Notes under the pieces: generated by a model
Seen by the model: the letters and a program-made list of their open reading frames with translations, nothing else
Databases searched by the model: none
Told to the model about the DNA's origin: nothing
Assembly: GCA_963791045.1 (NCBI GenBank)
Contig: CAWBQK010000013.1
Span: 270,933 to 334,932 of the forward strand
DNA: 64,000 nucleotides
Direction: 5' to 3'
Source: Candidatus Latescibacterota bacterium
GTDB taxonomy: Bacteria; Krumholzibacteriota; Krumholzibacteriia; WVZY01
Shown here: positions 1,125 to 54,084 of the stretch, piece after piece
Layout of the letters: each line of letters begins with the position of its first letter
How positions within the stretch are numbered: position 1 is the stretch's first letter
Made by a program: the position numbers and the translations under genes

Positions 1125-4100
1125 ATGACTACGCTTCTTCGCCTTGGGTTCGCCATTGCCATCATCGTAACCGTCCTGTCGCCGTACTCGGTGCGCGCCG
1201 TCGAACCAGGGACAAATGATCTTGGTTTTCTCGAGGGCATAAGCCTCATCGAACTCGAGACGGACGACATCGCTTCGATGCACGTCGCCCGCCGGTTGAT
1301 TCAATCTTACGGCGGCACCGTCGCCATCATGTCGCCCCCTTCTCTTCTCGTCGGCGTGATACCGTATGAGATTCGCGATCAACTCATCGGAAAAACGGGA
1401 ATCAAGGACATCTATCATACCGAGGTACTTCCCGGCGAAGTCCAGACGAACGATTCGAGATCGGAAGCGATGGTCGGATTCTTTAACGCCGCCGTCAGAG
1501 GCGAACTGGCCGCGGATCGGGACCGGTTTATACAGTCGGTAACGGCGGACGGCCCGCGCGAACAACGCGAGCCCGACCTTTTTTCGGCTGACGACATCGA
1601 CCCCCGCGCTTACCTCGATAACCTGCTGGCCAACGGGCTGGACGCTAAAAAACTCGAAGAAGAGGGTCTTCCCCTCAACCCGACCACGATGGCCACCGCG
1701 GGCAACAGCGACTACATGACGGGCACAGTGGCGTTGACGCTTTTCTTCGTGGAAAGCGACGGCACCGGTTCCGACCCGGATCAGTACACATGGACGCCCG
1801 AACACATGCAGAATTATATAAACGGCGTGGGAACCGCGCTCTACTGGTGGTCCAGCCGCGCCGCGCAGCACGGGGACTGTTGGGTTACCTTCCTCATCAA
1901 TTATTATTCGGGAGCCGACGAGAGATGTCAGCAGTGGGTCGAACCGATTCTGCATACCACTGAATACGAGGAAACGTGGATTAACGAAATCATGTCGAAC
2001 TTCGGTTACACATCGGGAACTCGCTTTTCCCGTGTTAGTGCTTTCAACACCTGGCAGCGATCGTATTACAACACCGACCGCTCGTATTCGGCTTTCATCC
2101 CTTACAACCCGGCCCCCGCGGCGGCAAGCTTTCCCGGAGGCGGAACGGCATACGCATACTGGTATGGCCCGCATACGGTTTTGCTCTACCACGTTCAGGG
2201 ATGGACGACCGCCGAGGTATTCGCTCACGAAACCGGCCATATCTTCGGCGCCTGCGACGAGTATGCGGGCGGGTGCTCATCGCCCACGTACGTTTGTGCC
2301 AACGGCGTAATCAACGGCAATTGCGAAGTCGGCAATCCCGACAGCCGCGACTGCATGATGAAAGAAAACTCGTTCTCAGTTTGCACGTACACAGTGAGTC
2401 ATCTTGGTTGGGAGATTAACAACCCATGTGCACCGGCGGAACCGCCTCTTCTCCCCACGGTGACATTGTCGACGGTCGATCCTCCGTCCGGATTCCACGG
2501 AGTGGACACATCGATCACTCTTTTTGGATCCAATTTCTACCCCGGGATCAGACTGGAAATGGGGGACGACATCTTCGTCCACGGGATCGATATTATCAAC
2601 GACCACACGCTTATCGCCCATACGACGGTTCTCGCATCCGCTCCCCCGGGACTTCGCAACGCCCGGGTCTTCAACCGTGACGGTCAGTTCGCGACACTCA
2701 CGGATGTATTCGAAGTTCTCCCCACGACGCGGCACTATTATTCGCCCACGGGCGGGGACGGTCCTCCCTATCTGTCGCCGGCAAACGCGGCCACGTCGTT
2801 TGAAGACGCCATCGCAGCCACCTACGACGGCGATACGCTCTTCGTCGTGACGATGACCTTTGACGACTTTTCGCTCATCGTCAATCACGGCGTTGTTTTT
2901 CACGGCGGATGGAACAACGATTTCAGCGCCCGTGACCTTGAAACCGGCAAGACGCTTGTTAACCTGAACGCCATAAACGGCAACATCACTTTTACCGGCG
3001 CGTCGCAAAACGCGGGGTTCGATGGATTTACAATCCAGAACGGCACCGGCGTGTATGACTTTTTCCCCTTCGGCGCCTATTTTGGCGGCGCGGTCCGATT
3101 CGTCGGGGGCAGTGCGGTCATCGCCAATTGTGAAATCAGTTCCAGCGCGGCGGGTGGCCCGATGAACTACGGTCTTGGAGGAGCGGTCTTCGCCGACGGG
3201 TGCCAGGTAGACATTCGTGACAGTTATATCCACGACAACGCGGCGACCCAGGGCGGCGCCCTGTACCTCCGCGGATGCACAGGGACGGTCTCGGGCAATA
3301 CAATCTCGGGCAACTCGCTATTCGCATCGCCCGAAACTCTTGTTGGCGGCGGCGTTGCCATCGTCGACTCGCCGGAAATGATTTTGACGGATAATGTCTT
3401 TTCGTCGAATACCTCCGCTGCGGAGGGCGGCGGGCTTTATGTCGAAAACTGCCCCAACCTGACAATGACCGGCGGCTCTCTATCAGCAAACGAGGCATCC
3501 TTCGCCGGCGGCGGTGTCAGGCTCAAGAAAACGACCGCCGTAATAGACGGGGTCGAGTTCAACGGCAACACCAGCGCCGGCCTCGGCGGCGGACTCGCCG
3601 CCATCGACTCGACCAACGCCACACTGTCAACGTCGACTTTTGTGTCCAACTCCGCCGCGGTCGGAGGGGGCGCTTATGCAACGGCCGGCTCTTTCTTTGT
3701 GACCCACAACCTCTTCACCGGCAATGCGTCGGCAAGCACCGGCGGCGCGCTGGTGGTGAGCGTAACAAATTCCGGAACCGTAATCGGAAACACGCTCAAC
3801 GCCAACTCGGCAAGCGGTGTGGGAGGATTGCTGGTCGGCGGAGACGTTGAGATTTTCAATAATATTGTCACAAACAACACGGGGCTGGGCGTTTCGTCCA
3901 CCTCGGGACAACCCCCCGTCTTGTCTCACAACCTCACGTGGAACAACTCGGGCGGGGACTATTCGAATTGCACGCCGGGCGACGGTTCGATATCCGCCGA
4001 CCCGATCTTCGTCGATCCCGCGGGCGGCGATTATCACCTGGCGCTTCATTCTCCGGCGATCGACGCGGGTATTGTAAACGGTTTGTACACGGACCCAGAT

Positions 4101-4739
4101 GGATCGCGCGGGGATCTGGGAGTCTACGGCTCGCACACATTCCAGATGGAACAGCCTGCCTTCACCAACAACCTGGCGGCTGACGTGGAGGGGGCAAACG
4201 TGGTTCTCGAATGGGACAAAAATCCCGAGAGCGACATCGCCAATTATGCCGTTTATTGCGACACCATCGGAGGCTTCACCCCTTCAGAGTTGAATTTTGT
4301 CGCGCTCGTCTCGGGATCCGACTCGACAACAACACTCGACCTTCCCGCGGATTCCTCGTACTATGTTGTCTCCGCCGTCGACACCGGCGGCTACGCGGGC
4401 GGTTACTCGGCGGCGGCATCGATTTCGCCTGCCACGGGTATCGGAGATCGTGTCACGCGCTATGAATACAAGCTGGGACAGAACGTACCCAACCCGTTCA
4501 ATCCGGTGACAACCATCGCCTATCAGCTTCCCGCAAGAACCAACGTCGAGTTGAATGTTTACGATGTCAACGGCCGCCTGGTGCGGCGGTTGGTATCGCA
4601 GTCACAGGGAGCGGGATCCTACTCGATCACATGGGCGGGAAAAAACGATTACGGAGAACCCGTGGCTTCCGGTGTCTATTTTTACCGTCTCAATACGGGC
4701 AGCTTTGTCAAAACACGAAAAATGGTTCTTTTGAAATAG
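1125..4739 (+). CDS. Secreted multidomain zinc metalloprotease-like protein (HExxH domain, Ig/IPT-like domain, right-handed beta-helix, FN3-like, FlgD-Ig/T9SS-like C-terminal domain)
   Basis: Signal peptide ending VRA; HETGHIFGACDEY plus downstream CMM Met-turn candidate; repeated GGA(L/V)/FxxN beta-helix motifs; C-terminal QNVPNPFNP...GVYFYRL...KMVLLK; RBS AGGAG. Confidence 0.8.
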   Translation: MTTLLRLGFAIAIIVTVLSPYSVRAVEPGTNDLGFLEGISLIELETDDIASMHVARRLIQSYGGTVAIMSPPSLLVGVIPYEIRDQLIGKTGIKDIYHTEVLPGEVQTNDSRSEAMVGFFNAAVRGELAADRDRFIQSVTADGPREQREPDLFSADDIDPRAYLDNLLANGLDAKKLEEEGLPLNPTTMATAGNSDYMTGTVALTLFFVESDGTGSDPDQYTWTPEHMQNYINGVGTALYWWSSRAAQHGDCWVTFLINYYSGADERCQQWVEPILHTTEYEETWINEIMSNFGYTSGTRFSRVSAFNTWQRSYYNTDRSYSAFIPYNPAPAAASFPGGGTAYAYWYGPHTVLLYHVQGWTTAEVFAHETGHIFGACDEYAGGCSSPTYVCANGVINGNCEVGNPDSRDCMMKENSFSVCTYTVSHLGWEINNPCAPAEPPLLPTVTLSTVDPPSGFHGVDTSITLFGSNFYPGIRLEMGDDIFVHGIDIINDHTLIAHTTVLASAPPGLRNARVFNRDGQFATLTDVFEVLPTTRHYYSPTGGDGPPYLSPANAATSFEDAIAATYDGDTLFVVTMTFDDFSLIVNHGVVFHGGWNNDFSARDLETGKTLVNLNAINGNITFTGASQNAGFDGFTIQNGTGVYDFFPFGAYFGGAVRFVGGSAVIANCEISSSAAGGPMNYGLGGAVFADGCQVDIRDSYIHDNAATQGGALYLRGCTGTVSGNTISGNSLFASPETLVGGGVAIVDSPEMILTDNVFSSNTSAAEGGGLYVENCPNLTMTGGSLSANEASFAGGGVRLKKTTAVIDGVEFNGNTSAGLGGGLAAIDSTNATLSTSTFVSNSAAVGGGAYATAGSFFVTHNLFTGNASASTGGALVVSVTNSGTVIGNTLNANSASGVGGLLVGGDVEIFNNIVTNNTGLGVSSTSGQPPVLSHNLTWNNSGGDYSNCTPGDGSISADPIFVDPAGGDYHLALHSPAIDAGIVNGLYTDPDGSRGDLGVYGSHTFQMEQPAFTNNLAADVEGANVVLEWDKNPESDIANYAVYCDTIGGFTPSELNFVALVSGSDSTTTLDLPADSSYYVVSAVDTGGYAGGYSAAASISPATGIGDRVTRYEYKLGQNVPNPFNPVTTIAYQLPARTNVELNVYDVNGRLVRRLVSQSQGAGSYSITWAGKNDYGEPVASGVYFYRLNTGSFVKTRKMVLLK

Positions 4740-4769
4740 CCTTCGGCCTGATCGAACAAGCACGCCCCA

Positions 4770-5216
4770 ATGGGAGCTTTCGCAATCATGTTGCTTTTGC
4801 TTCACACCGCCGCAACGTGGATGATGGTCGGCGTCATCTGGTTTGTCCAAATCATCCATTACCCTCTTTTCAACAAGATCGGCGAGGGAGCCTTTCCCGA
4901 ATACCACAAGTTGCACATGAACTTGACCATGCGCGTGATTACCCTACCGTCCGTGGTCGAAGGAATCACCGGGGTACTCATTGCCCTGAACCGGCCGGAA
5001 GGCGTTACATCAGCGCAGATATGGATGGGTCTGGCGCTGCTCGCCGTCATCTGGACTGCCACTTTTCTCATGCAGGTCCCAAAACATTTTGCGCTGTCGA
5101 AAAAATACGACACGCGGCTCTACCGTTCGCTCGTCGGCTCCAACTGGATAAGAACCGTGGCGTGGAGCCTGCGCGGCGCGCTCACCTTGTGGATGATTTC
5201 GGGAACAATGAATTGA
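4770..5216 (+). CDS. Small 4-TM membrane protein of unknown function
   Basis: Four hydrophobic helices; conserved-looking motifs GVIWFVQIIHYPLF, QVPKH and NWIRT. Confidence 0.7.
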   Translation: MGAFAIMLLLLHTAATWMMVGVIWFVQIIHYPLFNKIGEGAFPEYHKLHMNLTMRVITLPSVVEGITGVLIALNRPEGVTSAQIWMGLALLAVIWTATFLMQVPKHFALSKKYDTRLYRSLVGSNWIRTVAWSLRGALTLWMISGTMN

Positions 5217-5228
5217 TGGGAGCGGGGA

Positions 5229-5630
5229 TCAGCCGAGCGAGGCTATGACGTCGCGGAGGTCTCCCTCCAGGGGAAGCGCCTTGTTCGTCTTCGCATCAAC
5301 AACAACGAAGGTGACTTCCGCGTCCGCGACGACATCGTCGGTATCGGCAAAATGAATTTCCTGGCGGACCGTCGCGCTTTTTTCGCCCAGCCTCGACAGC
5401 GCGCATCTCACCTCGAGAAGATCACCGAGCATAGCGGCACGGCGGTAGTTGATCGTTATGTTTACGATAGTAAACGCCAGGCCGCGCTCGAGCCACGCAC
5501 CGATATCGATTTTCTCTTCGATGAGTTCCCACCGCGCGTCCTCAAGAAACTCTAAATACCGCGCATTGTTGACATGGCCATATACATCGAGATGATAGCC
5601 GCGAACCTTTATGCGTGTGTTATATGTCAT
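5229..5630 (-). CDS. fadM: Acyl-CoA thioesterase, hotdog fold (YbgC/FadM family)
   Basis: IKVRGYHLDVYGHVNNARYLEFLEDARW closely resembles the E. coli FadM/YbaW N-terminus as I recall it. Confidence 0.8.
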   Translation of the reverse strand: MTYNTRIKVRGYHLDVYGHVNNARYLEFLEDARWELIEEKIDIGAWLERGLAFTIVNITINYRRAAMLGDLLEVRCALSRLGEKSATVRQEIHFADTDDVVADAEVTFVVVDAKTNKALPLEGDLRDVIASLG

Positions 5631-5669
5631 CGATTTTACCCGGCGCAAGAAATGATAAAAGTCTTGTTC

Positions 5670-5720
5670 AAATCAAAGACCCGGAAACGGGACCTCGCCG
5701 GCCCCGCCCCGGGTATTTGA
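5670..5720 (-). terminator. Hairpin/putative terminator after citF
   Basis: Minus strand tcaaatacccggggcggggcc-ggcga-ggtcccgtttccgggtctttga forms a long GC/GU stem followed by ttt. Confidence 0.5.
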
Positions 5721-5749
5721 CTTCATCAGTCGAAGAACATCTCAATCGA

Positions 5750-7315
5750 TTACTCTTCAACCTGCCACACGGTATCGATAACCGTTCCATCAACCCACTT
5801 AATGACGGCGATCGGCTTATCGGTTACCGGCGGTTCCTCCGGCTTGCCGCCGATGATTCCTTCGATCTCGTCTTTGAGATCACGGATACGGCGAATCGGG
5901 AGACTCGTGTTCTTAACCGCTTTGAGCAAATCCTTCCGCCGAGGATTGATGGCGATCCCGCGCTCAGTGATCACGACATCGACGAGTTCGCCGGGGCCGG
6001 TCACCGTGGTCACCTTGTCGACGATCACCGGTATCCGGTCGCGGAAAGAAGGAATGGCGAGAATCGTACATCCCGAGGCGAGACAGTTTTGCCAGCCGCC
6101 GATGCCGTGGAGCAGGTAGCCGTCCGAATGGGTCACGACATTGGCGTTGAAATTAACATCAACCTCGGTCGCCCCCAGAACCGCCGCGTCGACCAGACTG
6201 GCGAAGTTGCCCTTCCCGTGGAAGTTGTACGACGTAAACGGCGTCGTCGCTACGTGCGAAGGGTTTGAACCGATCGACTCGACGGCGGCGAGATCAAACG
6301 TCTGTCCGTCGAGGATGTAATCGGTGAGCCCCTCGTTCAACATATCGACAAGATACTGTGTCGATCCGCCGCGGACAAAACGCGCCTTGACGCCGTCTTC
6401 GCGCATCATGTTTTTGAGAATCTCGACGAAGGCCAGAGCGATGCCGCCGGCACCCGCCTGGATGGAGAACCCATCGCGCATGATCCCCGATTCCCGTATA
6501 AAACGGGCCACATATTCAGCGGTGAGAAGCCGGTCGGGACTCTTCGTGATTTGCGTCGTGCCCGATACGATCTTCGCCGGATCGCCGATCTTATCTACTT
6601 CGACAACAAAATCCACATTGTTGCCTTGCACCTGCCACGGGATGCACGGAAAGGGGACGATGTTGTCGGTGACGACAATTACACGATCCGCATGAATCGA
6701 ATCGGCGAGTGCGAAACCGATCGAGCCGCAGGCCGAAGGCCCGTGCGATCCGTCCGAGTTGCCAAACGGATCCGCCGTCGGCGCCGCGATAACAGCGACA
6801 TCGACGTGAACCTCGCCGTCCTGGATCGCCTGCCAACGGCCGCCGTGCGATCGCAGCACACCCAGGCCGCGCATCTTACCGTGCGACGCGTAGCGCCCGA
6901 GGGGGCCGTTCATACTTCCCTCGATATGATGGATCACACCGCGATCCATAAGATCTATCATCGGCTCATGACACGGAAACGACGCGGTCGGGAACCACAT
7001 CAAGTCCTTGACCCCGAGTTCGGCTGCGGCGCCGAGCGCCATGTTCGCCACCTTGTCTCCGTTGCGGAGATGGTGGTGACTCGATATCGTCATCCCGTCC
7101 TTGAGTCCGCATTTCTTGAGAGCTGTCTTGAGATCGCGAACGCGCTTGTCCCCGTTTGCCGGATAATCCCGGCACGAACGAATCGGCGCCCCATACTTGT
7201 GACCTTTGGGTTTGTACGCGCCGACTCCCAGATAGGGAACCTGCTCGCGACCGTTAACAATCTTGGGGACTTTTCGCCCCACCTTATTCACGACAAAGTC
7301 GGATTTACCGCTCAT
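5750..7315 (-). CDS. citF: Citrate lyase alpha subunit-like CoA/ACP transferase
   Basis: GLKDGMTISSHHHLRNGD, LRSHGGR, TEVDVNFNANV, TTVTGPGELVDVVITERGIAINPRR and DGTVID are CitF hallmarks. Confidence 0.9.
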   Translation of the reverse strand: MSGKSDFVVNKVGRKVPKIVNGREQVPYLGVGAYKPKGHKYGAPIRSCRDYPANGDKRVRDLKTALKKCGLKDGMTISSHHHLRNGDKVANMALGAAAELGVKDLMWFPTASFPCHEPMIDLMDRGVIHHIEGSMNGPLGRYASHGKMRGLGVLRSHGGRWQAIQDGEVHVDVAVIAAPTADPFGNSDGSHGPSACGSIGFALADSIHADRVIVVTDNIVPFPCIPWQVQGNNVDFVVEVDKIGDPAKIVSGTTQITKSPDRLLTAEYVARFIRESGIMRDGFSIQAGAGGIALAFVEILKNMMREDGVKARFVRGGSTQYLVDMLNEGLTDYILDGQTFDLAAVESIGSNPSHVATTPFTSYNFHGKGNFASLVDAAVLGATEVDVNFNANVVTHSDGYLLHGIGGWQNCLASGCTILAIPSFRDRIPVIVDKVTTVTGPGELVDVVITERGIAINPRRKDLLKAVKNTSLPIRRIRDLKDEIEGIIGGKPEEPPVTDKPIAVIKWVDGTVIDTVWQVEE

Positions 7316-7352
7316 TGTCTGCCTCCACGATCAGTCGTTTTGTTTGCGTATC

Positions 7353-8612
7353 TTACTTTTTTGAAATCAACCCCGCGCGTTTCGCCGTTTCCACGAGCCG
7401 TTGTGCCCGCAGCACGACCGGCGGGTCGACCATCTTCGTCCCCAGGCTGACGACGCTTAAGCCTTTCTTCTTTGCGGCATCGAAAGCGGCAACGATCTTG
7501 AGCGCCTTTTCGATTTCTTCGGGTCCGGGGGCGAACGCCTCGTGAATCACCCGGATCTGACGGGGGTGAATACACCCCATTCCTTCGAATCCAAGACCGC
7601 GGGCGCGAACACCCCACGCTTTGAGACCGTCCGAGTCGCCCACATCCCCGTAGACCGAATCGATCGCCTGCACGCCGGCGGCACGCGCCGCGTTGGCCAG
7701 GCGGACACGCGCGAACTGCGATTCGTCTCCCTCCCTGGTCTTGCGAACGCCCATGTCGGCGGTATAATCCTCGAGCCCGATGGTCAGAGCCACCACGGTA
7801 TCGGCCGCGCCCGCTATCGCAAACGCGTTCTCGACACCAAGCGCTGACTCGATGATCGGCATCAACCACACCGGCGATTTGATTTTGTGCTGCCCTTGGA
7901 TCTTTTTGATCCGCTTGTCGACGTCGGCCACTTGTTCGGCGGTTTCGACCTTCGGGATCAACACCAGGTCCGGCGACTCCGGAATGATTTCGTCGAGATC
8001 ATCGAGTCCCATGGGAAGCTGGTTTATCCGGACCATCCGTTCGGCGCCGAGAAAATCGATGCATCGAAGTCCGTTTCTGACCAGAATCCGGGCCGAGTCT
8101 TTCTCGCCGGGATGAACCGAATCCTCGAGATCGAGAATCACGGCGTCGGGTCTATGAATTCCCGCATTTATCGCGAATTTGGGTTCGTTACCGGGAAGAT
8201 AGAGCCTCGACCTGCGCAGCCGGTCGCTTGCCGTCGGTCCCGACTGCTTGATCTTCCGCCCGATCGGTGTGCGTCCCTTGCACCCGGCGCGCCTTAGCGC
8301 CGTCTCAACTCTCGCGCCAATAACGAACGGCAGCCCTCCCTTGTCTTCGACTTCAACCCTGGCGTTCTTGACACCGTAACCGGCGAGAACCTTCTTTACC
8401 GTCTCGCGGATCGACTTGCCAAAAAACGCCTCGACCTTCGAACGGAGCTTGAGTTCCACGCCTCCTTTGTCCGACAATGTCACCGATACAAAGAGATCGG
8501 ACTTTACATCGTCTCCGCGGCGGCCGGCCTCGCCTTTCTTCGGCGCGGGCCGCTTCGCCCGCGCGCCCGCGCGTCCCCGTGCTTTCACGGTTTTCTTCTT
8601 TGCTTTGGGCAT
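7353..8612 (-). CDS. citE: CitD (ACP, gamma)-CitE (citryl-ACP/CoA lyase, beta) fusion with basic N-terminal tail
   Basis: N-domain KSDLFV...SKVEAFFGKSIRETV...VEDKGGL...ARVETALRRA is CitD-like. C-domain RRSRLYLPGN, ILDLEDSV, IIESALG, GLEDY, CIHPRQI and MVDPP is CitE. Confidence 0.88.
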   Translation of the reverse strand: MPKAKKKTVKARGRAGARAKRPAPKKGEAGRRGDDVKSDLFVSVTLSDKGGVELKLRSKVEAFFGKSIRETVKKVLAGYGVKNARVEVEDKGGLPFVIGARVETALRRAGCKGRTPIGRKIKQSGPTASDRLRRSRLYLPGNEPKFAINAGIHRPDAVILDLEDSVHPGEKDSARILVRNGLRCIDFLGAERMVRINQLPMGLDDLDEIIPESPDLVLIPKVETAEQVADVDKRIKKIQGQHKIKSPVWLMPIIESALGVENAFAIAGAADTVVALTIGLEDYTADMGVRKTREGDESQFARVRLANAARAAGVQAIDSVYGDVGDSDGLKAWGVRARGLGFEGMGCIHPRQIRVIHEAFAPGPEEIEKALKIVAAFDAAKKKGLSVVSLGTKMVDPPVVLRAQRLVETAKRAGLISKK

Positions 8613-8637
8613 TTCCCTTCCTCTTTTCCGCGTAAAC

Positions 8638-9819
8638 CTAGAGCTTCGAAATAATCGCGTCGGTCATCTGTATCGCCGTCGCCGCACCCTTAGAAATAGC
8701 GTCGGGCCCACCCGCGAGTTTCATCATATCGTACGGGCGAACCTTGCCTTCCTTGACAACCGCGGCAACCGCGTCGCGCATCCGCTTCGCCTTGTCGCCT
8801 TCGCCCACATGATCGACGAGCATCGCCGCGCTCAACACCATCGCGATCGGGTTGACGATCGGCGGATCGAGGTTTTCATATTTTGGCGCCGAGCCGTGCG
8901 TGGGCTCGAATACGGCGACTTCGTCGCCTATATTTCCCGAGCAGGCAAACCCGAGACCGCCGACAAGACCGGCGAACGCATCGGAAACGATGTCGCCAAA
9001 GAGATTGCCCGCGACGACCACGCCGTAGATTTCCGGATTCTTGGTCAGCCACATCATCTGCGCATCAATATTGGTCGACCACAGTTCGATATCAGGATAC
9101 TTCTCCTTCACGCTGGCCGCCACGTCTTCGAGCATTCCCGAAGTCTCACGAAGCACGTTCGGCTTTTCGCAAACGGTGACCGATGGGTACCCGTGTTTCT
9201 TCGCGTAGGCGAAAGCGGCCTCCATGATTCGCGTGCACGCATTGCGCGTAAACATGCGGACAGACACCGCCAAATCTTCGCCTTTGACATCCGCAAACGG
9301 TTTGTATTTTGGATGGGTCCCGAAACCCTTCCGCACCTCTTCGGGCGGATTTGTCCATTCCAGGCCGCAGTAGAGCCCCTCCGTGTTCTGACGGAAGATC
9401 ACCGCGTCGACTTTCGGCTCTTCGAAGCCACCGTCGGCGGTCTGGCGGATAAAGTTGAGTGGATTGCCGGGGAACGACCGGCAGGGACGGATACAAACAT
9501 CGAGATTGAATTTCTGCCGCATCCCGACGATCGGGCTGAAGTAGACGTATCCCTTGTCACGAAGCTCTGGGCTGAGCTCTTCGGCGGCCTTGTTTTTCGG
9601 CTTCGAAGTGATCGCGCCGAACAACCCCAGCTTGTGTTCTTTCAAGAGCTTGAGGGTTCTGTCGGGGAGCGGATTTCCCTCTTTGATCCAGAAGTCCCAA
9701 CCAATATCCGCATGAACGTAATCCGCCTCAAACCCAACCGCCTCCAACACCCGTACGGACTCCGGAAGAACCACTTTGCCGATACCGTCACCGGGCATCG
9801 TTACTACTGTACGCTTCAT
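8638..9819 (-). CDS. Beta-decarboxylating dehydrogenase, homoisocitrate dehydrogenase-like (ICDH/IPMDH family)
   Basis: MPGDGIG, LFGAITS, YFSPIVGMRQ, RQNTEGLY, NLFGDIVSD, FEPTHGSAP, NPIA. YxSPIVxxR resembles fungal Lys12. Confidence 0.85.
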   Translation of the reverse strand: MKRTVVTMPGDGIGKVVLPESVRVLEAVGFEADYVHADIGWDFWIKEGNPLPDRTLKLLKEHKLGLFGAITSKPKNKAAEELSPELRDKGYVYFSPIVGMRQKFNLDVCIRPCRSFPGNPLNFIRQTADGGFEEPKVDAVIFRQNTEGLYCGLEWTNPPEEVRKGFGTHPKYKPFADVKGEDLAVSVRMFTRNACTRIMEAAFAYAKKHGYPSVTVCEKPNVLRETSGMLEDVAASVKEKYPDIELWSTNIDAQMMWLTKNPEIYGVVVAGNLFGDIVSDAFAGLVGGLGFACSGNIGDEVAVFEPTHGSAPKYENLDPPIVNPIAMVLSAAMLVDHVGEGDKAKRMRDAVAAVVKEGKVRPYDMMKLAGGPDAISKGAATAIQMTDAIISKL

Positions 9820-9861
9820 AATCGTTACATCCCCCTTCACAAATGTTTGTTTTTGAAATCG

Positions 9862-11811
9862 CTACGAGAGACCGAGTCGTTTGCGAACGAGATTCTCGAT
9901 GCCTCCCGCGATCACCAGCGACTGAGGAACCGAACCCAGCGGCGGGAAACCGAACGTTTCGCCTCGGTGGGTCAATGTTCCGCGTGAAAAATCGATGACC
10001 AGCTCGTCGCCGGGAATAATCGTCGGCTTGCCCGATTCGATGTCACTCGCGAGTTCTTCGCGGAGCCGTTGGACGAGTTCCGGACATTCGATACACACAA
10101 ATCCGTTGTTGTAAGCGTTTCGCAAATACGTCTGCGAAAAGCTTCCAGCTATAACAAGTGCGATGCCCTTCGCCTGAAAGGCAGTCGCCGCCTGCTCGCG
10201 ACTCGATCCCGTTCCGAAATTGTTCCCTCCGACGAGCACATCGCCCTCGAATGTGTTTTTCGAAAACTCGGGATCGTAGTTCTCCATCAGGACACGCGAC
10301 ATTTCCTCGCGTGTCATTCCCTCTTTGTAGGTATAGTCCTTGCCGTAGATCCCATCGGTGTTGAGATTGTCCTGCGGGACAAATACGAGACGTCCCTGGA
10401 TCTTCTCGGGGAACCCCGATTGAATCTCCACGCTCTCACCACCGGCGCCGGGGCCGGATTCGATTACAGAGAACTGTTTGTCGGGACTGCGCCCGTCGAC
10501 GACATCGGGGCCGGTGATAAAACCGGCGATGGCCGACGCGGCAACTACTTGTGGACTCGCCAGATACGCCTGCGCGTCGCGCGACCCCATTCGACCTTTG
10601 AAGTTCCTGTTCGTCGCCGAGATCCCTACCTCTCCGGGCTCGAGAAGCCCGGTCCCAAGACCGATGCACGGTCCGCATCCGGGGGGAAGCGGACGCGCGC
10701 CCGCCTCCAGGAGCGTCCCCCATACACCGCTGGCTTCCGCGGCATCCTGGATTTCCCGGCTGGCTGCGGCAACGTAGAACTCGACACCGTCCGCGATTTT
10801 TTTGTCTTTCAACACGGCCGCGGCGACTTCAAGATCGTTGTACCGGCTGTTCACGCACGAGACAAGGTACGCTTTGCGAATCGCAATTTTCTCTTTTTCG
10901 ATATCGAAAACCGATCGCATCACCTGGACCGAATCGGGCCCCGATACATGCGGACTAACATCTTCCAAGTTCACTTCAATCCGGGCCGCGTAGTTCGCGT
11001 CACCGTCCGGCGACGGCGGGCTGGTCTCCCAGTTTGCAATGTCACCTTCGGTAAACCGCTCAACACCCTGGGCGCTGAGCACGGCATGCCGTTCTTTGAG
11101 ATATCGGATCGTAACGTCGTCGACCGGGAACCATCCAACAAGCGCTCCCCACTCGGTCGTCATGTTTGAAATGGCCATCCGCTCATCCATGCTCAAACCC
11201 GCGACGCCGAGCCCCGTGAACTCCACCGCGGCGTTAAGCACCTCGCCCTTGTTGTAAAGACCGCAGAGCGTGACGATGACATCCTTGCCCGTGACGCCTT
11301 CGCGAAGTTTGCCGCTGAAAACAACTTCAATCGTGCGCGGAATCTGCCACCAGAACTCGCCGGTGGCCCAAATCGCGGCCGCATCGGTCCTGACGACCGG
11401 CGTCCCAAGCGCGCCGAGCGCCCCGTACATGTTCGAATGCGAGTCCGACCCCACGACCAGCGAGCCGGGAACGACATAGCCGTTTGCGACCATGATCTGG
11501 TGCCCGATCCCCGTCCCGGCGGGATAGTGATCAACACCCTGCTCGGCGGCAAATTCGGCGATAGCCTTGTACTTCGCCAGGTTGGCCTCGGATGTATTCT
11601 GGATATCGTGATCGAGCGGAAAAACCGGCTGCCGCGGGTCGTGGATTTTCGCGGCGCCGATCGCCTTGAACTTGTTCATAACCGCCGCGGTGTTATCGTG
11701 CGTCATGACGTGCCGCGGACGCAACGACACGACGTCGCCGACACGCACCGGCCGGTCGGGCCCCTCGGTCATGTGCGCCTGGACAATTTTTTCGACAATG
11801 GTCTGCCCCAT
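9862..11811 (-). CDS. lysF: Single-chain homoaconitase (fungal Lys4/LysF type)
   Basis: LDHDIQN, GIGHQIM, SDSHSNMYG, GTPVVRTDAAAIWATG, three Fe-S Cys (VSCVNSR, CGPCIG), ISATNRNFKGRMG; fused swivel domain DNLNTDGIY, FGTGSSREQA. Confidence 0.9.
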   Translation of the reverse strand: MGQTIVEKIVQAHMTEGPDRPVRVGDVVSLRPRHVMTHDNTAAVMNKFKAIGAAKIHDPRQPVFPLDHDIQNTSEANLAKYKAIAEFAAEQGVDHYPAGTGIGHQIMVANGYVVPGSLVVGSDSHSNMYGALGALGTPVVRTDAAAIWATGEFWWQIPRTIEVVFSGKLREGVTGKDVIVTLCGLYNKGEVLNAAVEFTGLGVAGLSMDERMAISNMTTEWGALVGWFPVDDVTIRYLKERHAVLSAQGVERFTEGDIANWETSPPSPDGDANYAARIEVNLEDVSPHVSGPDSVQVMRSVFDIEKEKIAIRKAYLVSCVNSRYNDLEVAAAVLKDKKIADGVEFYVAAASREIQDAAEASGVWGTLLEAGARPLPPGCGPCIGLGTGLLEPGEVGISATNRNFKGRMGSRDAQAYLASPQVVAASAIAGFITGPDVVDGRSPDKQFSVIESGPGAGGESVEIQSGFPEKIQGRLVFVPQDNLNTDGIYGKDYTYKEGMTREEMSRVLMENYDPEFSKNTFEGDVLVGGNNFGTGSSREQAATAFQAKGIALVIAGSFSQTYLRNAYNNGFVCIECPELVQRLREELASDIESGKPTIIPGDELVIDFSRGTLTHRGETFGFPPLGSVPQSLVIAGGIENLVRKRLGLS

Positions 11812-11864
11812 TATCATCCTCCCATGTGTACTCGTGCAGATGGCACAAAATCGTGTACGTCACG

Positions 11865-11960
11865 GCACCGAGTGGACAAAGGTTTTTGGTGAATCCGCAG
11901 GACGCTAATATTCAAATGCGTCCGAGGACCTGAACAAAAAAACCTTCGTCCACTCGGTGC
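11865..11960. repeat. ~96-bp intergenic imperfect palindrome/hairpin
   Basis: gcaccgagtggac...gtccactcggtgc outer arms, aaggttttt/aaaaacctt middle, ggacgc/gcgtcc inner. Confidence 0.8.
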
Positions 11961-11973
11961 GTATCCTTCTCCG

Positions 11974-13353
11974 CTAGCGAATATCCGCTTTGCAGAGATC
12001 CATCAGTTCGGTGATCGAGCCGATATTTTCGAGGCCCCACACCGCGTCCTTCAACCGTTTCCTCGCGTCGTCCGACAGGACCGGCCTGGCCAACGCGTCA
12101 AACTTGTCTTCGATTTCGGCATCGGTGAGCGGGTTGCGTGGATCGCCTTTTGGATAGTCGAGCTGTTTTTCGAATTCCTTCCCGTCCGTCGTCGTGACCT
12201 TAACCTTCACACGCTGGAGTTCGGGGAAAACAGCTTCGATCTCCGGATCGGCAACCACCACGACCTTGTTCAGCTGCTCGCGGATCTTGTCATCCATGAT
12301 CCGCTCCTGCTCGAACTGCGCCGGTGTCACCTGACGGTCGACAATCGCCGCCGCAATCACGTAGGGCAAACTGTGATCCGCCGTCTCCTTCGAGCGCGGG
12401 TCGTACTTGCTTGGGTCCGCGAGAATGTCCGCCGCACGAGCGAGTGAGCGGATGTGGACCTCTTTGACCTGGTCGGGCGAAAGATCATTTTCAGTTATAA
12501 TATCGAGAGTGGCCGATATAGGCGCGTGTGTCAGTGCTTCGGTCGGAAATGCTTTCATCCCGCATTTTTCAATACGCCACGAATCTCCAAGCCCATCGGT
12601 CAAAATATTCAGCTTCCATTCGGGGCCGAAACAATGGGTCAGGCCTTCCTTGCCATCGACGACATGCTCGGGTCCCGTGTAGCCTTTTTCGGCGAGCAGC
12701 GCCGCCATCACGCCACTCTGCGTCGCCATCGGATCGACGGTGTTCTTCATCATCGTAAGCTTCCCAGCCGTAACCGCACCGAGCGTTGAGTGCCGCGAGG
12801 CGGAAATACCGATGGCGTGCTGGATCTTTTCCCAGTCGAGACCCAGCATCCAGCCGGCAACGATCGGAGAAACAAAAGCGGTCAGTGTCGCGTGGTGCCA
12901 ACCGCGCTCCCGGATCCCGGGGAACGCCGCTTCGCAGAACCGCATCTCAAACTCATGACCCAAAACGATACCTACGATCAAGTCTTTGCCGTTTCCGCCG
13001 GCCCTTTCACCGCAGGCGAGCGCCGCTGGAATAATATCCGATGGGTGCGACGGATCCTGCTGCCAGTAAATGTCGTTGTAATCCATGACACGAACCATCA
13101 ACGCGTTGGCAAGCGACGCCGTCACCGCGTCGGTTTTCTTTCCCGTACCGAGAATAGTCGCGTTTCCCTTGCCGCCGATTTCCTCGAGGACATCGAGCGC
13201 GATCTCCGCGTCTTCCTGGCGCAGTCCGCCAAACGCACACCCCAGAGAATCAAGTAGATAACGCCGCGCTTCGTGAACGGCGTTCTCGCCGATGTGTTCG
13301 AACTTCAAATCGGCGGCCCAGCGAGCCATTTTGGCTGTAATTGTTTCCGACAT
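11974..13353 (-). CDS. prpD: MmgE/PrpD family dehydratase (2-methylcitrate dehydratase-like)
   Basis: VRVMDYNDIY, HPSDII, KYDPRSKETADHSLPY, YPKGDPRNP. Confidence 0.9.
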   Translation of the reverse strand: MSETITAKMARWAADLKFEHIGENAVHEARRYLLDSLGCAFGGLRQEDAEIALDVLEEIGGKGNATILGTGKKTDAVTASLANALMVRVMDYNDIYWQQDPSHPSDIIPAALACGERAGGNGKDLIVGIVLGHEFEMRFCEAAFPGIRERGWHHATLTAFVSPIVAGWMLGLDWEKIQHAIGISASRHSTLGAVTAGKLTMMKNTVDPMATQSGVMAALLAEKGYTGPEHVVDGKEGLTHCFGPEWKLNILTDGLGDSWRIEKCGMKAFPTEALTHAPISATLDIITENDLSPDQVKEVHIRSLARAADILADPSKYDPRSKETADHSLPYVIAAAIVDRQVTPAQFEQERIMDDKIREQLNKVVVVADPEIEAVFPELQRVKVKVTTTDGKEFEKQLDYPKGDPRNPLTDAEIEDKFDALARPVLSDDARKRLKDAVWGLENIGSITELMDLCKADIR

Positions 13354-13406
13354 CCCTAAATCGCCTCCGCTTCTTGCAACCGGTTCGTCTTGAGACCGGG
13401 CAACTA

Positions 13407-13943
13407 CTAAAGGTTTTTGAATGGTAGGAAGCTCATAAAGTCCGCATGATGAACTATGGTCGCTTCGGTGGTTCTTTTGACGAGTTCCCCTTCACCTGCA
13501 TGTGCGGCGATGATGTGACACACATCGTCGGGCACTCCGCATTCCATCGCGAGGGCCACACCGGTAAAAGGATGTCTGAGAAGTTTTCCCCGCACACTCT
13601 GCTTCGCCTCGCCGTCTATTTTCTCGTATTCGAGAAGTTTCCCGACATCGGCGAGAATGGCTCCCGCGATTACAGTATCCATGTCAATCGCGAGCGCTTT
13701 TCCCAAAAATTCCTTCATCGCTTCCGCTGATTTTCGCGCGATGTGCACAACACATCTTTTGTGTTCCATAAAAGTCGATGGGCAATTCGGAACGAGCAGC
13801 GTAAAAGGAATTCGTTCCAGATCGTCCGCGGTGAGCGGACTCAATTCCAACGCTTTCATCCACGTCTTTTCAACACTCTCACGAAGCTCGGCATTCTCAA
13901 TCCATTCCAACTCCGGCCAGAGTTTCGCCACTGCCTCACGCAT
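13407..13943 (-). CDS. HD/HDIG-domain protein with AD in place of HD
   Basis: EHKRCV...AILADVGK...RHPFTG...IIAAH...IVHHAD follows the HD-fold motif order; RBS AGGAGG. Confidence 0.8.
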   Translation of the reverse strand: MREAVAKLWPELEWIENAELRESVEKTWMKALELSPLTADDLERIPFTLLVPNCPSTFMEHKRCVVHIARKSAEAMKEFLGKALAIDMDTVIAGAILADVGKLLEYEKIDGEAKQSVRGKLLRHPFTGVALAMECGVPDDVCHIIAAHAGEGELVKRTTEATIVHHADFMSFLPFKNL

Positions 13944-14024
13944 CGAAAATTCCTCCTGCGAAGATACCGTTGTTCCGGCCCGTTCCGGCGGGCCACAGGC
14001 CCCATATCCATTACTCAACACAAC

Positions 14025-14053
14025 AGATTACGTGGTCTCAAAGCCAATGTCAA
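14025..14053 (-). promoter_or_regulatory. sigma70 promoter of the HD-prpD-lysF-dehydrogenase-citDE-citF operon
   Basis: Minus strand TTGACA (14053-14048), 17 bp, TAATCT (14030-14025). Confidence 0.7.
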
Positions 14054-14109
14054 TTTGTACCGGCGGATTCACAACGGGATTTCACTCGGGCGCCGGGGCG
14101 GGCACAATT

Positions 14110-14811
14110 TTACAACGATGCGAAGGAGTCCATCGCCTCAGATATAAACATCTCGACGAGCCGCCGATCCTTGCGGCCCGACTCGTCCTCGACACCCGTA
14201 TGGGAATCAACCCCGGCGGGGCGAACGACACGGATAGCCTCGGAAACGTTACCGGGGGTGAGCCCCCCGGCGAGGATAACCGGAAGCGGCGAAAGCTCGA
14301 CGAGCCGCCGACTGACCGACCAGTCGTGGGTCTTGCCCGTCGCCCCCGACCGGCCCGTGGCGGGATCGAAAGTATCCGTCAGGAAAGCGTCGACAAAGGG
14401 GCTCATTTTCTCGACGTCGGCGAGAAGATCGGAGAAACTCTCCCTCCGAACAATGAGCGATTTGATCACAAAGAGGTCTCCGGCGCACCTTCCCAGGGCG
14501 GCGAGTTCTTCGAGCGCCAGATCGCCTTGCAGCTGGACGGCCGGGGCGTTGACGTCCCGGCACAAAGCCTGGATCTCCTCGGCGCGGTCGAGATAAGTAA
14601 TCACGATCCCGTGTAACGGCGGCCGGAGCGAATCGATTATCGCTCGCGCCGCTTTCTCAGAGAGGTCCTCCCTGCCACCGCCAAGACGAAGCGGAAATCC
14701 GAGGGACCCGGCGCCGCATTCGCTTACCATTTTCGCCTCATCGTCATCGATGATTCCGGCAATTTGAATCAGCGGCCGGCCGTCCTGGAATATTCGGGGT
14801 TTGTTCTTCAT
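14110..14811 (-). CDS. trpF: Phosphoribosylanthranilate isomerase (TrpF)-like TIM barrel
   Basis: AVQLQG, FLTDT, GATGKTHDW, ILAGGLTPGNV, GVDSHTGVE. N-terminus reads QIAG instead of KICG. Start uncertain. Confidence 0.75.
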   Translation of the reverse strand: MKNKPRIFQDGRPLIQIAGIIDDDEAKMVSECGAGSLGFPLRLGGGREDLSEKAARAIIDSLRPPLHGIVITYLDRAEEIQALCRDVNAPAVQLQGDLALEELAALGRCAGDLFVIKSLIVRRESFSDLLADVEKMSPFVDAFLTDTFDPATGRSGATGKTHDWSVSRRLVELSPLPVILAGGLTPGNVSEAIRVVRPAGVDSHTGVEDESGRKDRRLVEMFISEAMDSFASL

Positions 14812-14938
14812 TCGGGGCACCTTGAAAGCGCGTTGAGTCGGCACGGCCCTGATCATACGGGCTTTACATGTGGCGGGCAACCCGCATATTCTTGCACGAA
14901 AGTTGCCTTCGACCGACCCTTTCAATTGGAGCGGAGAC

Positions 14939-16495
14939 GTGCACCCGACAAAACCCGACGAGAAGCGCGCGGCGTTCATGGACATCGGCACCAACTCGGT
15001 GCGGATGCTGATCGTCGGCATCACCGGCGACACGTACACGGTGCTCAGCAAGCAAAAAGAAATGGTCCGTCTTGGAGAGGGCGAATTCGACGACGGGATG
15101 CTCAAACCCGAAGCCGTGGAACGCGCTGCGCTGGTCTGCGGCGAATTCGCGGAAATGGCCAGGGGATTCGAAGTGGACGACATCCTCGCGGTCGCCACGT
15201 CGGCGCTCCGTGAAGCCGACAACAGGGCCGAGTTCATCGAGCGCCTGCATGAGGAAGCGGCCCTCGACGTTAGAGTCATTTCAGGCCCCGAAGAGGCGCG
15301 CCTGATCTACCTGGGAGTATCGAGAAGCATCCATCTCGAAAGCACCCCGGCTCTTTTTATCGATATTGGCGGCGGGAGCACCGAGCTCATCGTCGGCGAC
15401 AACGTCGACTACGAATCGCTCGACAGCGTGCAGCTCGGCGCAATCCGGCTCGCAAATCTATTTTTTCTGAAGGACGAAAATGGGCCGGTGCCACGGAGCC
15501 GATACAAATTGATCCGTCAGTATGTTTACAACAGGGCGATCCGCGTCATCCAACGGCTTGCCGGCAAAAAGTATGCGGCGGTGGTGGGCAGTTCTGGGAC
15601 CATCGAGAATCTCGCCGACATTGCCGCACGGATGTTCCACGGACGTAAACGCGTTCCGGAAGATCTCTTGACCCGCGCCCAGCTCAAAACGGTTATTTCA
15701 CACCTTTGTGAGCTTCCGCTCGAAAAGAGGCGGCAGGTACACGGCATAAATGCGAACAGAGCCGACATCATCATCGCGGGTGCCGCTGTTCTCGATGGTC
15801 TGATGAAAGCGCTCCATGTCGATGAACTCCGCATAAGCGGACGTGGCGTTCAACACGGCCTCCTCGTCGATTATCTCGCATCAAATCAGCACGATCTTCA
15901 CGCGAAACCCTACACGGTCCGCGAGCGTAGTGTTTTAAAACTCGGAAGATCCTGCCGGTTCGACGAACAACACGCGCGGCACGTGGCGGATCTCGCCCTC
16001 GAACTTTTCGACTCGGGCAAAGAGGCGGGGCTTCACGCGCTGGGCGAATGGGAGAGGGAGCTTCTTGGCCACGCCGCTCTTCTTCACGACGTCGGGATGT
16101 TTGTCGCGTATAACAGCCACGAGGCACACACCTACTATCTCATCCGCCACGCCAACCTTCTTGGTTTCGATCAGACCGAAACCGCGATCATGGCGTCGAC
16201 GGCTTTCTTTCACCGCAAACGTTTCCCGCGCAAAAAACACCCCGAGTTTGCCACGCTCGACAAACGATCCGGCCAAATCGTGAGGGTTCTCGCGACGTTT
16301 CTGCGAATGGCGGAAAGTCTCGACCGAAGTCACACTAACGCTATCGACCATGTACGGCTCCTGTCGGGAGACGAAGAGATCGTTTTGGAGACCCGATCGG
16401 AAAAGGGCACGCAGCTCGAAGAATGGAATATCCCCCAGAGGGCCGAGGAGTTCGAGAGGGTGTTCGAAAAAACGCTCGTGGTTAAGAAGTTGTAG
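14939..16495 (+). CDS. ppx: Ppx/GppA exopolyphosphatase with C-terminal HD domain
   Basis: DIGTNSVR, VATSALREA, ISGPEEARLIYLGV, IDIGGGSTE, RADII, ALLHDVG. GTG 14939 follows GGAG. Confidence 0.9.
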   Translation: MHPTKPDEKRAAFMDIGTNSVRMLIVGITGDTYTVLSKQKEMVRLGEGEFDDGMLKPEAVERAALVCGEFAEMARGFEVDDILAVATSALREADNRAEFIERLHEEAALDVRVISGPEEARLIYLGVSRSIHLESTPALFIDIGGGSTELIVGDNVDYESLDSVQLGAIRLANLFFLKDENGPVPRSRYKLIRQYVYNRAIRVIQRLAGKKYAAVVGSSGTIENLADIAARMFHGRKRVPEDLLTRAQLKTVISHLCELPLEKRRQVHGINANRADIIIAGAAVLDGLMKALHVDELRISGRGVQHGLLVDYLASNQHDLHAKPYTVRERSVLKLGRSCRFDEQHARHVADLALELFDSGKEAGLHALGEWERELLGHAALLHDVGMFVAYNSHEAHTYYLIRHANLLGFDQTETAIMASTAFFHRKRFPRKKHPEFATLDKRSGQIVRVLATFLRMAESLDRSHTNAIDHVRLLSGDEEIVLETRSEKGTQLEEWNIPQRAEEFERVFEKTLVVKKL

Positions 16496-16548
16496 CGGAA
16501 AGGTTTACCGGCTGCAGCGAAGAAAACATCCAACGAGACGCAAGCCGG

Positions 16549-17025
16549 TCATTTCAATAAAGTGGCAGGTTGCAACAACCAAACGAGCTCCCCGTGCCGG
16601 CTGTCCCGAGAGCAAAGATCCACACGCGCGACACTTCCCTTTTTGCACACCACTATGGCGCCGCCGATAAGTTCGCCGATAATCGAACTGCAACTCGGCT
16701 CGTGACCAACGAAGGCGATCCGTTCAACGGCGGGGTGCTCCTCAATCAACGATCTCACGTCTGACACATCGAACCCGAACCCGAGTCTATCATCAACCAC
16801 AAGCCGATCTTTGATTTCCAGGACATCGGCGACTATTGTGGCCGTCTGAATCGCGCGGGTTAACGGGCTCGAGACAATGCGATCCACTTCGAACCCTATC
16901 TCCGAGAGCCGCCGCGCTTGTTTTTCCATTCGGTACTTTCCGTCGGATGTCAGCGGCCGTTCAAAATCTCCGCCGTCCCACGCGCTGCGGTCGGCCCTGC
17001 CGTGACGGATAAAATAGAGTTCCAC
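16549..17025 (-). CDS. sixA: SixA-type phosphohistidine phosphatase
   Basis: IRHG, RPLT, SSPLTRAIQTA, VGHEP. Confidence 0.85.
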   Translation of the reverse strand: MELYFIRHGRADRSAWDGGDFERPLTSDGKYRMEKQARRLSEIGFEVDRIVSSPLTRAIQTATIVADVLEIKDRLVVDDRLGFGFDVSDVRSLIEEHPAVERIAFVGHEPSCSSIIGELIGGAIVVCKKGSVARVDLCSRDSRHGELVWLLQPATLLK

Positions 17026-17042
17026 TTGTCACGTCCTCCCGG

Positions 17043-54065: not shown

Positions 54066-54084
54066 CGGCGGACCCGTCCCGTTA

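Follow-up and report, generated by a model that had tools for sequence, protein, structure and literature searches.

A stretch of 64,000 nucleotides from the genome of a Candidatus Latescibacterota bacterium (contig CAWBQK010000013.1), referred to here as the window, contains an operon of six genes that run head to tail between 5750 and 14021. In order, they encode an HD-domain protein, an MmgE/PrpD-family enzyme (the PrpD-like protein), a Lys4-type hydro-lyase of the aconitase family, an Iso_dh-family dehydrogenase, a fusion of CitD with CitE (CitDE), and a CitF-type transferase. The same six-gene order is found in at least five phyla, which is far beyond chance. With slightly less than even confidence, we propose that the operon converts 2-oxoadipate to 2-oxoglutarate and acetate via homoisocitrate, cis-homoaconitate and homocitrate, probably catabolically. 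No published description of the six-gene set or of this route was found in the literature searched. An initial annotation of the window, which had read these genes as a homocitrate-lyase pathway, is partly supported as a whole; open reading frame (ORF) calls, Pfam and NCBIfam confirm the six co-directional genes where it had placed them, all on the minus strand.

In the proposed route the dehydrogenase, an NADP(H)-type member of its family, would carboxylate 2-oxoadipate (2-oxoadipate + CO2 + NADPH <-> homoisocitrate), the Fe-S hydro-lyase would interconvert homoisocitrate and cis-homoaconitate, and the PrpD-like protein would interconvert cis-homoaconitate and homocitrate, the half-reaction that lies beyond Lys4-type enzymes. 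CitF would load homocitrate onto the CitD-domain thiol (or onto coenzyme A, CoA) in exchange for acetate, and CitE would cleave the loaded homocitrate to 2-oxoglutarate and an acetyl thioester. The net reaction would be 2-oxoadipate + CO2 + NADPH <-> 2-oxoglutarate + acetate + NADP+, and in the catabolic direction it would dispose of 2-oxoadipate, such as that derived from lysine, with no need for CoA, ATP or oxygen. We infer the substrate series, direction and stereochemistry of this route from sequence comparison. The C7 series is favoured because of the Lys4-type assignment of the hydro-lyase, the need for a second (de)hydratase, and a dehydrogenase that lacks the isocitrate-contact Asn. 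The catabolic direction is favoured because the nine operon genomes carry DapF without LysX, because the dehydrogenase has an NADP-type site, the residues of which would fit reductive carboxylation, and because condensation from free acetate is uphill, as citrate lyase thermodynamics indicate.

The hydro-lyase provides the most specific assignment. Its large and small domains are fused, and it scores 739.4 bits against the homoaconitase model TIGR00139 (cut-off 529.9), while all aconitase, LeuC and isopropylmalate isomerase models remain below their cut-offs; the earlier homoaconitase call is thus borne out at the equivalog level. The best solved match is the large subunit of Methanocaldococcus (M.) jannaschii homoaconitase. 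Residues C321, C381 and C384, which we take from their position in the family to be the 4Fe-4S ligands, are kept in 71-72 of 73 aligned sequences, and the small-domain loop N-T-D-[GA]-I-Y-G-K-D-Y-T-Y, presumably Lys4-like, is strictly conserved. According to PMC3556520, fungal Lys4 interconverts only homoaconitate and homoisocitrate, with aconitase supplying the homocitrate half-reaction, and methylcitrate requires PrpD since aconitases perform only trans-eliminations.

The PrpD-like protein belongs to the MmgE/PrpD family by its Pfam domains (PF03972, 243 bits; PF19305, 159 bits), and to this extent the earlier name PrpD holds. It does not hold at the equivalog level, since the three PrpD models give 92.7 bits against a cut-off of 950, 88.5 against 575 and 65.1 against 458, and among solved structures it is closest to IDS epimerase (143 bits), followed by a Bacillus IRG1-like protein and cis-aconitate decarboxylases (about 100 bits), with true PrpD structures at 33-63 bits. 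We rejected an identity as 2-methylcitrate dehydratase, that is, as a PrpD orthologue, on these scores and these nearer solved relatives. Because the solved relatives include IDS epimerase and cis-aconitate decarboxylases, dehydratase would be only one of three plausible activities for this protein. The lyase end of the operon bears on the same step. CitE-type lyases, (S)-citramalate lyase among them, cleave 2-substituted malates of the S configuration, and LeuA-type synthases give the R series, which aconitases accept. By analogy with these lyases the pathway intermediate may be (S)-homocitrate, which would explain the recruitment of a hydratase that is not an aconitase.

The dehydrogenase is a member of the Iso_dh family (PF00180, 248.9 bits) that reaches no equivalog cut-off, and Thermus homoisocitrate dehydrogenase (HICDH) is its second-ranked solved structure (175 bits). 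The catalytic Arg, Tyr, Lys and Asp set is retained. K320, Y321, V329, Y370 and K374 correspond to the NADP-site residues K344, Y345, V351, Y391 and R395 of E. coli Icd, and the first four are identical in all nine orthologues compared, the fifth being K or R. The substrate loop reads S102-P-I-V-x-M/L-R108, with S102, P103, I104, V105 and R108 conserved in 62 of the 64 sequences, and the isocitrate-contact motif Ser113-x-Asn115 of E. coli Icd is not present, as Ile104 replaces Asn115; this register is taken from the gapless stretch before R108, and MAFFT sets the neighbouring 14-residue insertion differently. A Thermus HICDH mutant with Val at the position equivalent to V105 reportedly lost its activity on isocitrate while retaining that on homoisocitrate, a point given no weight here. 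The earlier description of the enzyme as HICDH-like is weaker than had been stated, as no HICDH model is reached and the cofactor residues are of the NADP type.

The two lyase genes resemble those of citrate lyase without matching them throughout. CitDE carries PF06857 (68.5 bits) and PF03328 (178.7 bits); its carrier part passes the citD equivalog TIGR01608 (67.1 bits, cut-off 63.5), and its lyase part stays under the citE equivalog TIGR01588 (261.5 bits, cut-off 443.4), with malyl-/beta-methylmalyl-CoA lyase and the citramalyl-CoA lyase CLYBL as nearest solved structures. The carrier pair S38-D39 is invariant in 58 of 58 sequences, and in a gapless alignment Ser38 falls under Gly15 of E. coli CitD and Lys/Arg37 under Ser14, a shift of one position. 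CitF (PF04223, 440 bits) gives 490.3 bits against the cut-off of 501.45 for TIGR01584, is 37% identical to E. coli CitF, and is nearest in structure searches to the putative citrate lyase alpha subunits 2hj0 and 1xr4. The initial annotation had reported no citC, citX or citG in the window. Profile searches and tblastn extend this absence to the genome and, for CitG, to the phylum: CitX and CitG profiles have no match in this genome, the E. coli CitC, CitX and CitG proteins find nothing in it by tblastn better than E = 0.025, and CitG was found in none of 208 species genomes of the phylum and none of five operon genomes from other phyla. At one locus of family f7 (L026, genome G051, 7365-14157) a stand-alone CitDE-CitF pair lies between genes for pyruvate kinase and ATP-type phosphoenolpyruvate (PEP) carboxykinase.

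The first gene of the operon encodes an HD-domain protein (PF01966, 33.9 bits, cut-off 22). Its start is probably the ATG at 13943, which gives 178 amino acids and lies 8 nt after AGGAGG (13957-13952); the longer ORF extends to 14021, and the orthologues align from residue 25-27 of that ORF. The Pfam domain and the fold are those of HD metal-dependent phosphohydrolases, but the His-Asp doublet is replaced by A124-D125 (A in 71 and D in 73 of 74 aligned sequences). A structural model (pLDDT 87.7) finds only generic HD structures, the best being YhaM (TM 0.65), and the ESM Atlas matches are to 'putative metal-dependent phosphohydrolase' clusters only. A predicted complex of the HD and PrpD-like proteins scored 0.00 against a mark of 0.32, a result that is uninformative either way. 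In 79 of the 80 genome loci the HD gene immediately precedes the PrpD-like gene, and its product is one of the most strongly conserved of the six proteins. We regard this variant HD protein as an integral part of the operon. Its adjacency to the PrpD-like gene is not universal, because two metagenome contigs (L214 and L221) go straight from the HD gene to the hydro-lyase gene with no PrpD-like gene between. At a further locus (L220, 9986-10534), an HD protein 76% identical to that of the window occurs within a different organic-acid island, together with a dicarboxylate symporter, an MFS transporter, a LysR regulator, a distant MmgE/PrpD protein, two distant aconitase-family proteins, an Ldh_2-family dehydrogenase, an FAD enzyme and an RraA-like aldolase.

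Conservation of the gene set was followed with the PrpD-like and HD proteins as anchors, using the best 80 of at least 583 confirmed relatives of the PrpD-like protein in a species-level genome collection, these 80 all being from metagenome-assembled genomes (MAGs), and 80 loci from more than 560 confirmed relatives of the HD protein in metagenome contigs. By their record titles, the genome loci include 45 from Acidobacteriota, 26 from Gemmatimonadota, four from Bacteroidota/Rhodothermales, one from Akkermansiaceae (Verrucomicrobiota) and one from Latescibacterota. The gene order is conserved well outside the window: all six genes are colinear in 54 of the 80 genome loci, and a further 20 keep the order as far as the contig reaches. 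Six are exceptions, namely three Terriglobia loci in which no CitF match lies within 5 kb, one locus without an HD match, and two that are split into HD-PrpD and hydro-lyase-dehydrogenase-CitDE units. Among the metagenome loci, the contigs of which are mostly short, 24 of 80 are complete, 53 hold a prefix of the order and three are odd. Median identities to the window are 76% for HD, 77% for the PrpD-like protein (74-88% across 80 loci of several phyla), 68% for the hydro-lyase, 73% for the dehydrogenase, 62% for CitDE and 75% for CitF. When the 2013 flanking ORFs of 80 loci were clustered and the 40 commonest flank families examined with Pfam, no seventh conserved gene appeared; these 40 are unrelated housekeeping genes. 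Because no flanking family recurs beyond 17 of the 80 loci, the six genes form a self-contained unit.

The picture within the phylum is more varied. Among the matches listed, the closest locus found elsewhere is in a Candidatus Latescibacterota MAG. In 208 species genomes of the phylum the CitDE fusion occurs in 138 and hydro-lyase relatives (E <= 1e-50) in 159, with clear hydro-lyase orthologues (55-79% identity) in six of nine families. Of 20 loci centred on CitDE, one has the same order, one has all six genes reordered and three retain part of the set within 8 kb; of 20 centred on the hydro-lyase, one has the full set, three have a PrpD-like gene nearby and one (G022) has four genes. Two genes inserted between HD and PrpD-like in G022 were considered as a possible lyase and rejected, as they encode a multihaem cytochrome and an unknown protein. 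In a PrpD tree built by a quick method, the window and its nearest relative fall inside a Gemmatimonadota/Rhodothermales clade, apart from other Latescibacterota, which hints at gene transfer, while the strongly supported branches would be compatible with a single Latescibacterota origin. A cluster of another kind (L059, genome G040, 146-17991) contains genes for acetyl-CoA synthetase, a distant CitF-like protein (30%), PFOR, malic enzyme and a 2-oxoacid:ferredoxin oxidoreductase, as well as two fused aconitase-family genes (38% and 31% to that of the window) and an Iso_dh gene with the S-P-I-V loop. Here a second enzyme of the aconitase family may stand in for the PrpD-like protein, which would make the cluster a variant of the operon.

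The rest of the genome, as far as the assembly covers it, informs the choice of direction. The initial annotation had noted the absence from the window of a homocitrate or isopropylmalate synthase; we find this confirmed genome-wide, as no HMGL-like synthase (LeuA, homocitrate synthase or CimA) has a match in this genome, which also shows none of LeuA, LeuB and LeuCD. Its further statement that prpB and prpC are lacking agrees with the absence of any citrate-synthase-family or PrpB-like protein among the scanned window ORFs of at least 150 amino acids. For lysine, DapF was found in this genome, LysA has one match below cut-off (226 bits), and LysX has none over cut-off; across the operon genomes LysX exceeds its cut-off in none of nine and DapF is found in all nine. 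Judged from these markers, the host appears to make lysine by the diaminopimelate (DAP) route, which together with the absence of LysX argues against a biosynthetic role for the operon.

The link to lysine or tryptophan breakdown, also put forward earlier, is weaker than had been stated, as it consists of the enzyme family names and of a lysine-ketoglutarate reductase (LKR)-saccharopine dehydrogenase pair that is unlinked to the operon. This pair lies on contig C1 (67617-71485; L156 8118-11986), where genes for an LKR-like AlaDh_PNT_N protein, a saccharopine dehydrogenase and a class-III aminotransferase are adjacent and co-directional. The predicted activities of this trio could plausibly bring lysine towards aminoadipate, and it may start a saccharopine breakdown route. 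Saccharopine dehydrogenase was rejected as a co-occurrence marker, being too common (165 of 208 genomes) and mixing at least two score classes. No lysine genes were detected by Pfam beside the dispersed hydro-lyase copies at four Latescibacterota loci.

Several observations weigh against the 2-oxoadipate route. No saccharopine-pathway (lysine-breakdown) gene lies near the operon in any of 160 loci, and three operon genomes from the window's own family (G200, G205 and G206) are without any Sacchrp_dh_C match. The relatives of the PrpD-like protein described above mean that it might act as an epimerase or a decarboxylase instead. The dehydrogenase falls short of the HICDH models (AksF2, 259.3 bits against 540; AksF, 253.3 against 500), and its S-P-I-V loop also occurs in Iso_dh proteins of other Latescibacterota families in surroundings like those of the tricarboxylic acid (TCA) cycle. 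Since families f4 and f7 have shorter Iso_dh genes with this loop near aconitase-family, CitF-like and 2-oxoacid oxidoreductase genes, the loop is best regarded as a clade mark and no proof of substrate. In this genome, G200 and G021 the operon dehydrogenase is the only Iso_dh found, and no monomeric isocitrate dehydrogenase was found in this genome, though citrate synthase and an AcnA-type aconitase were. Either these bacteria are without isocitrate dehydrogenase or the operon enzyme does that job too. Absences in this genome are themselves soft, because the assembly is only 81% complete. Finally, CitDE-CitF stands alone in 15 of the 20 CitDE-centred loci of the phylum, the stand-alone pair at L026 fits an ordinary oxaloacetate-yielding citrate lyase, here too without CitG, and G022 has the HD, PrpD-like, hydro-lyase and dehydrogenase genes, with CitDE and CitF not found by the window query.

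A citrate or other alkyl-citrate substrate is possible, and two alternatives follow from it. The operon could combine a citrate lyase, an aconitase-equivalent pair and an NADP-isocitrate dehydrogenase to link 2-oxoglutarate, isocitrate, citrate, and oxaloacetate plus acetate, either as a reductive branch of glutamate breakdown or as the isocitrate dehydrogenase step of the cell. An isocitrate role fits the operon enzyme being the sole Iso_dh of this genome, as it is of G200 and G021, and the lack of a match for the monomeric enzyme in this genome beside citrate synthase and AcnA; Icd-like NADP residues, a CitF score close under the citF cut-off, the lyase pair of family f7 between pyruvate kinase and PEP carboxykinase and, in G016, an aconitase-family gene immediately 5' of CitDE-CitF all point the same way. 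We nevertheless consider this unlikely, as the hydro-lyase passes the homoaconitase model and fails every aconitase model, and the Asn of the isocitrate site is replaced by a conserved Ile. Citrate is moreover prochiral and AcnA is present, so that a two-enzyme isomerase would be redundant, CitG, CitX and CitC are absent, and in other phyla the operon Iso_dh is an extra copy, because three to six Iso_dh genes are found in each operon genome there. The substrate could also come from a different series of substituted citrates or malates, such as 2-oxobutyrate <-> 3-methylmalate <-> citraconate <-> (S)-citramalate <-> pyruvate + acetate, or be of the methylcitrate, isopropylmalate or plant tricarboxylate type. 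The hydrophobic side-chain pocket of the dehydrogenase (I104, V105), the CoA-lyase relatives of the CitE part and the missing LeuA, LeuB and LeuCD would suit such a series, and to our knowledge the acyl carrier protein (ACP)-type citramalate lyase is the only other enzyme of CitDEF architecture. This reading is fairly unlikely, given that the LeuC/LeuD and isopropylmalate models lie far under their cut-offs while the Lys4 model is passed, that the small-domain loop, which we take to be Lys4-like, is strictly kept, and that none of the 160 loci links a threonine, propionate or leucine pathway gene to the operon.

The remaining alternatives concern the unity of the operon and its direction. An ordinary CitDE-CitF lyase could simply adjoin an independent trio of PrpD-like protein, hydro-lyase and dehydrogenase with HD, as might be expected from the many lyase pairs of the phylum without the trio nearby, the trio and HD without lyase genes in G022, the scattering of the genes in the largest family, and the occurrence of HD in the L220 island. 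The order is nonetheless the same in at least five phyla despite changing flanks, the internal gaps are short with one terminator closing the operon, and operon-type CitDE and CitF of other phyla are 58-83% identical to those of the window, against 45-57% for the stand-alone pairs of families f7 and f8; two separate modules are accordingly improbable. Least credible is the 'synthase-free entry to aminoadipate lysine synthesis' suggested earlier, in which acetate and 2-oxoglutarate would be condensed without a synthase to give 2-oxoadipate for lysine. The genome does have no homocitrate synthase, but the LysX and DapF counts in the nine operon genomes speak against the suggestion, as do the LysA-like match in this genome, the unfavourable energetics of condensing free acetate, and an NADP-type cofactor site where known biosynthetic family members have an NAD-type one, so that we regard it as highly improbable.

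Among known systems, citrate lyase (CitDEF with CitC/X/G; EC 4.1.3.6; citCDEFXG in E. coli) has the same transferase, lyase and carrier parts, at 37-38% identity, and these parts are shared also by the ACP-type citramalate lyase of Clostridium. In contrast to the E. coli system, the CitD of the operon is fused to CitE, the citE equivalog is missed, the carrier serine lies one position on, CitG is missing from the phylum and from the other operon genomes and CitC and CitX from this genome, and the lyase genes are joined to four genes foreign to citrate lyase. The upper alpha-aminoadipate pathway of fungi (Lys20/21, aconitase with Lys4, and Lys12; PMC3556520) has in common with the operon a Lys4-type hydro-lyase at the equivalog level and an isomerisation that two enzymes share before a beta-decarboxylating dehydrogenase acts. 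The operon differs in having a lyase complex in place of the synthase, an MmgE/PrpD-family partner in place of aconitase and an NADP-type dehydrogenase, and its pathway probably runs backwards relative to the fungal route, because the host makes lysine by the DAP route. The methylcitrate cycle likewise divides one isomerisation between a cofactor-less MmgE/PrpD enzyme and an Fe-S hydro-lyase, but the operon protein is no PrpD orthologue, PrpB and PrpC are missing, and the product would be taken up by a dehydrogenase instead of a member of the isocitrate lyase family. Known routes of 2-oxoadipate disposal are oxidative decarboxylation to glutaryl-CoA and the HglS-type conversion to 2-hydroxyglutarate. 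The proposed route would serve the same physiological end, turning 2-oxoadipate into central metabolites, by quite different chemistry: the substrate would be carboxylated, isomerised and then cleaved at a C-C bond, without oxygen and without being made into a CoA ester.

If the 2-oxoadipate route is correct, a widespread gene set, with the hundreds of relatives in genomes and metagenome contigs counted above, would gain a function, and lysine and 2-oxoadipate catabolism would gain an anaerobe-compatible branch that is missing from genome-scale models of Acidobacteriota, Gemmatimonadota and Latescibacterota. It would also mean that complexes of the citrate lyase type are able to work without the CitG/CitX prosthetic-group machinery, and that the MmgE/PrpD family and a degenerate HD protein have new roles. 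A fuller version of this proposal would have as its intermediate (S)-homocitrate, the enantiomer of the (R) form known from lysine synthesis and nitrogenase, with a PrpD-family (S)-homocitrate dehydratase, carrier loading that is free of CitG and CitX and perhaps involves the 'AD'-variant HD protein, and a third bacterial end-route of lysine breakdown that gene transfer has carried between phyla of soil and sediment. That all of this should hold together we think fairly unlikely.

The features of the operon are collected in Table 1. The intergenic gaps, taken from the ORF coordinates, are 53, 156, 21, 25 and 37 nt. The promoter described earlier, TTGACA-17 nt-TAATCT, is indeed present in the sequence but is no better than chance: TAATCT agrees with TATAAT at three of six positions, the promoter scanner did not list the site, and in 10 kb the scanner found seven promoter-like sites against 3.5 +/- 2.0 in shuffles. 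The match is weak. The closing hairpin that had been noted 3' of CitF is well supported, the 91-nt fold having -40.1 kcal/mol (z = -3.9), a value equalled by none of 200 shuffles.

Table 1. Features of the six-gene operon, with positions in the window
Feature	Position	Strand	Basis
HD-domain protein ORF	13407-14021	minus	ORF call + Pfam; probable gene 13407-13943
MmgE/PrpD-family enzyme, 459 aa	11974-13353	minus	PF03972 + PF19305
Fused aconitase-family hydro-lyase, Lys4 type, 651 aa	9862-11817	minus	TIGR00139, Aconitase + Aconitase_C domains
Iso_dh-family beta-decarboxylating dehydrogenase, 400 aa	8638-9840	minus	PF00180
CitD-CitE fusion, 419 aa	7353-8612	minus	PF06857 + PF03328
CitF-type acyl-carrier/CoA transferase (alpha subunit), 521 aa	5750-7315	minus	PF04223
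Promoter-like TTGACA (14053-14048), 17-nt spacer, TAATCT (14030-14025)	14025-14053	minus	direct reading
Terminator-like hairpin 3' of CitF	5670-5723	minus	folding vs shuffles

No riboswitch was found in the window and four loci scanned. An Acido-Lenti-1 RNA motif (58.5 bits, gathering score 37) lies at 11473-11518 on the minus strand of one Acidobacteriota locus (L103), in the intergenic space that separates the PrpD-like gene from the hydro-lyase gene and on the strand opposite to them; it was not found in seven further Acidobacteriota loci. Immediately upstream of the HD gene in the window is a divergent, stand-alone TrpF-like gene (14110-14790, minus), with a PRAI domain of 66.9 bits, every NCBIfam TrpF model under cut-off, and a long N-terminal stretch of the ORF that appears to be non-coding. 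A TrpF-like gene is also directly upstream of HD in three related loci (L061, L074 and L158).

The window is the last 64 kb of its contig (C13). From 50896 to 64000 it is a near-perfect palindrome of two inverted arms of about 6.5 kb, 94-99% complementary and 19 nt apart (57431-57449). The arms encode malic enzyme, TrkH, TrkA, a ParA-like ATPase and a CHAD protein, with frameshifts breaking the second copy. As window and contig end at exactly the same position, the palindrome is probably a fold-back assembly artefact. Three other genes are split into overlapping ORFs, those for a pyridoxal-dependent decarboxylase (18846-20343), an AcrB-type pump (39325-42541) and an MFS transporter (45503-46769), which suggests frameshift errors of assembly, or pseudogenes. 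Downstream of the terminator of the operon is a gene for a YbgC-type thioesterase, and at 1125-4739 the window encodes a secreted protein of 1204 amino acids with beta-helix repeats, a metalloprotease-like motif and a type IX secretion sorting domain.

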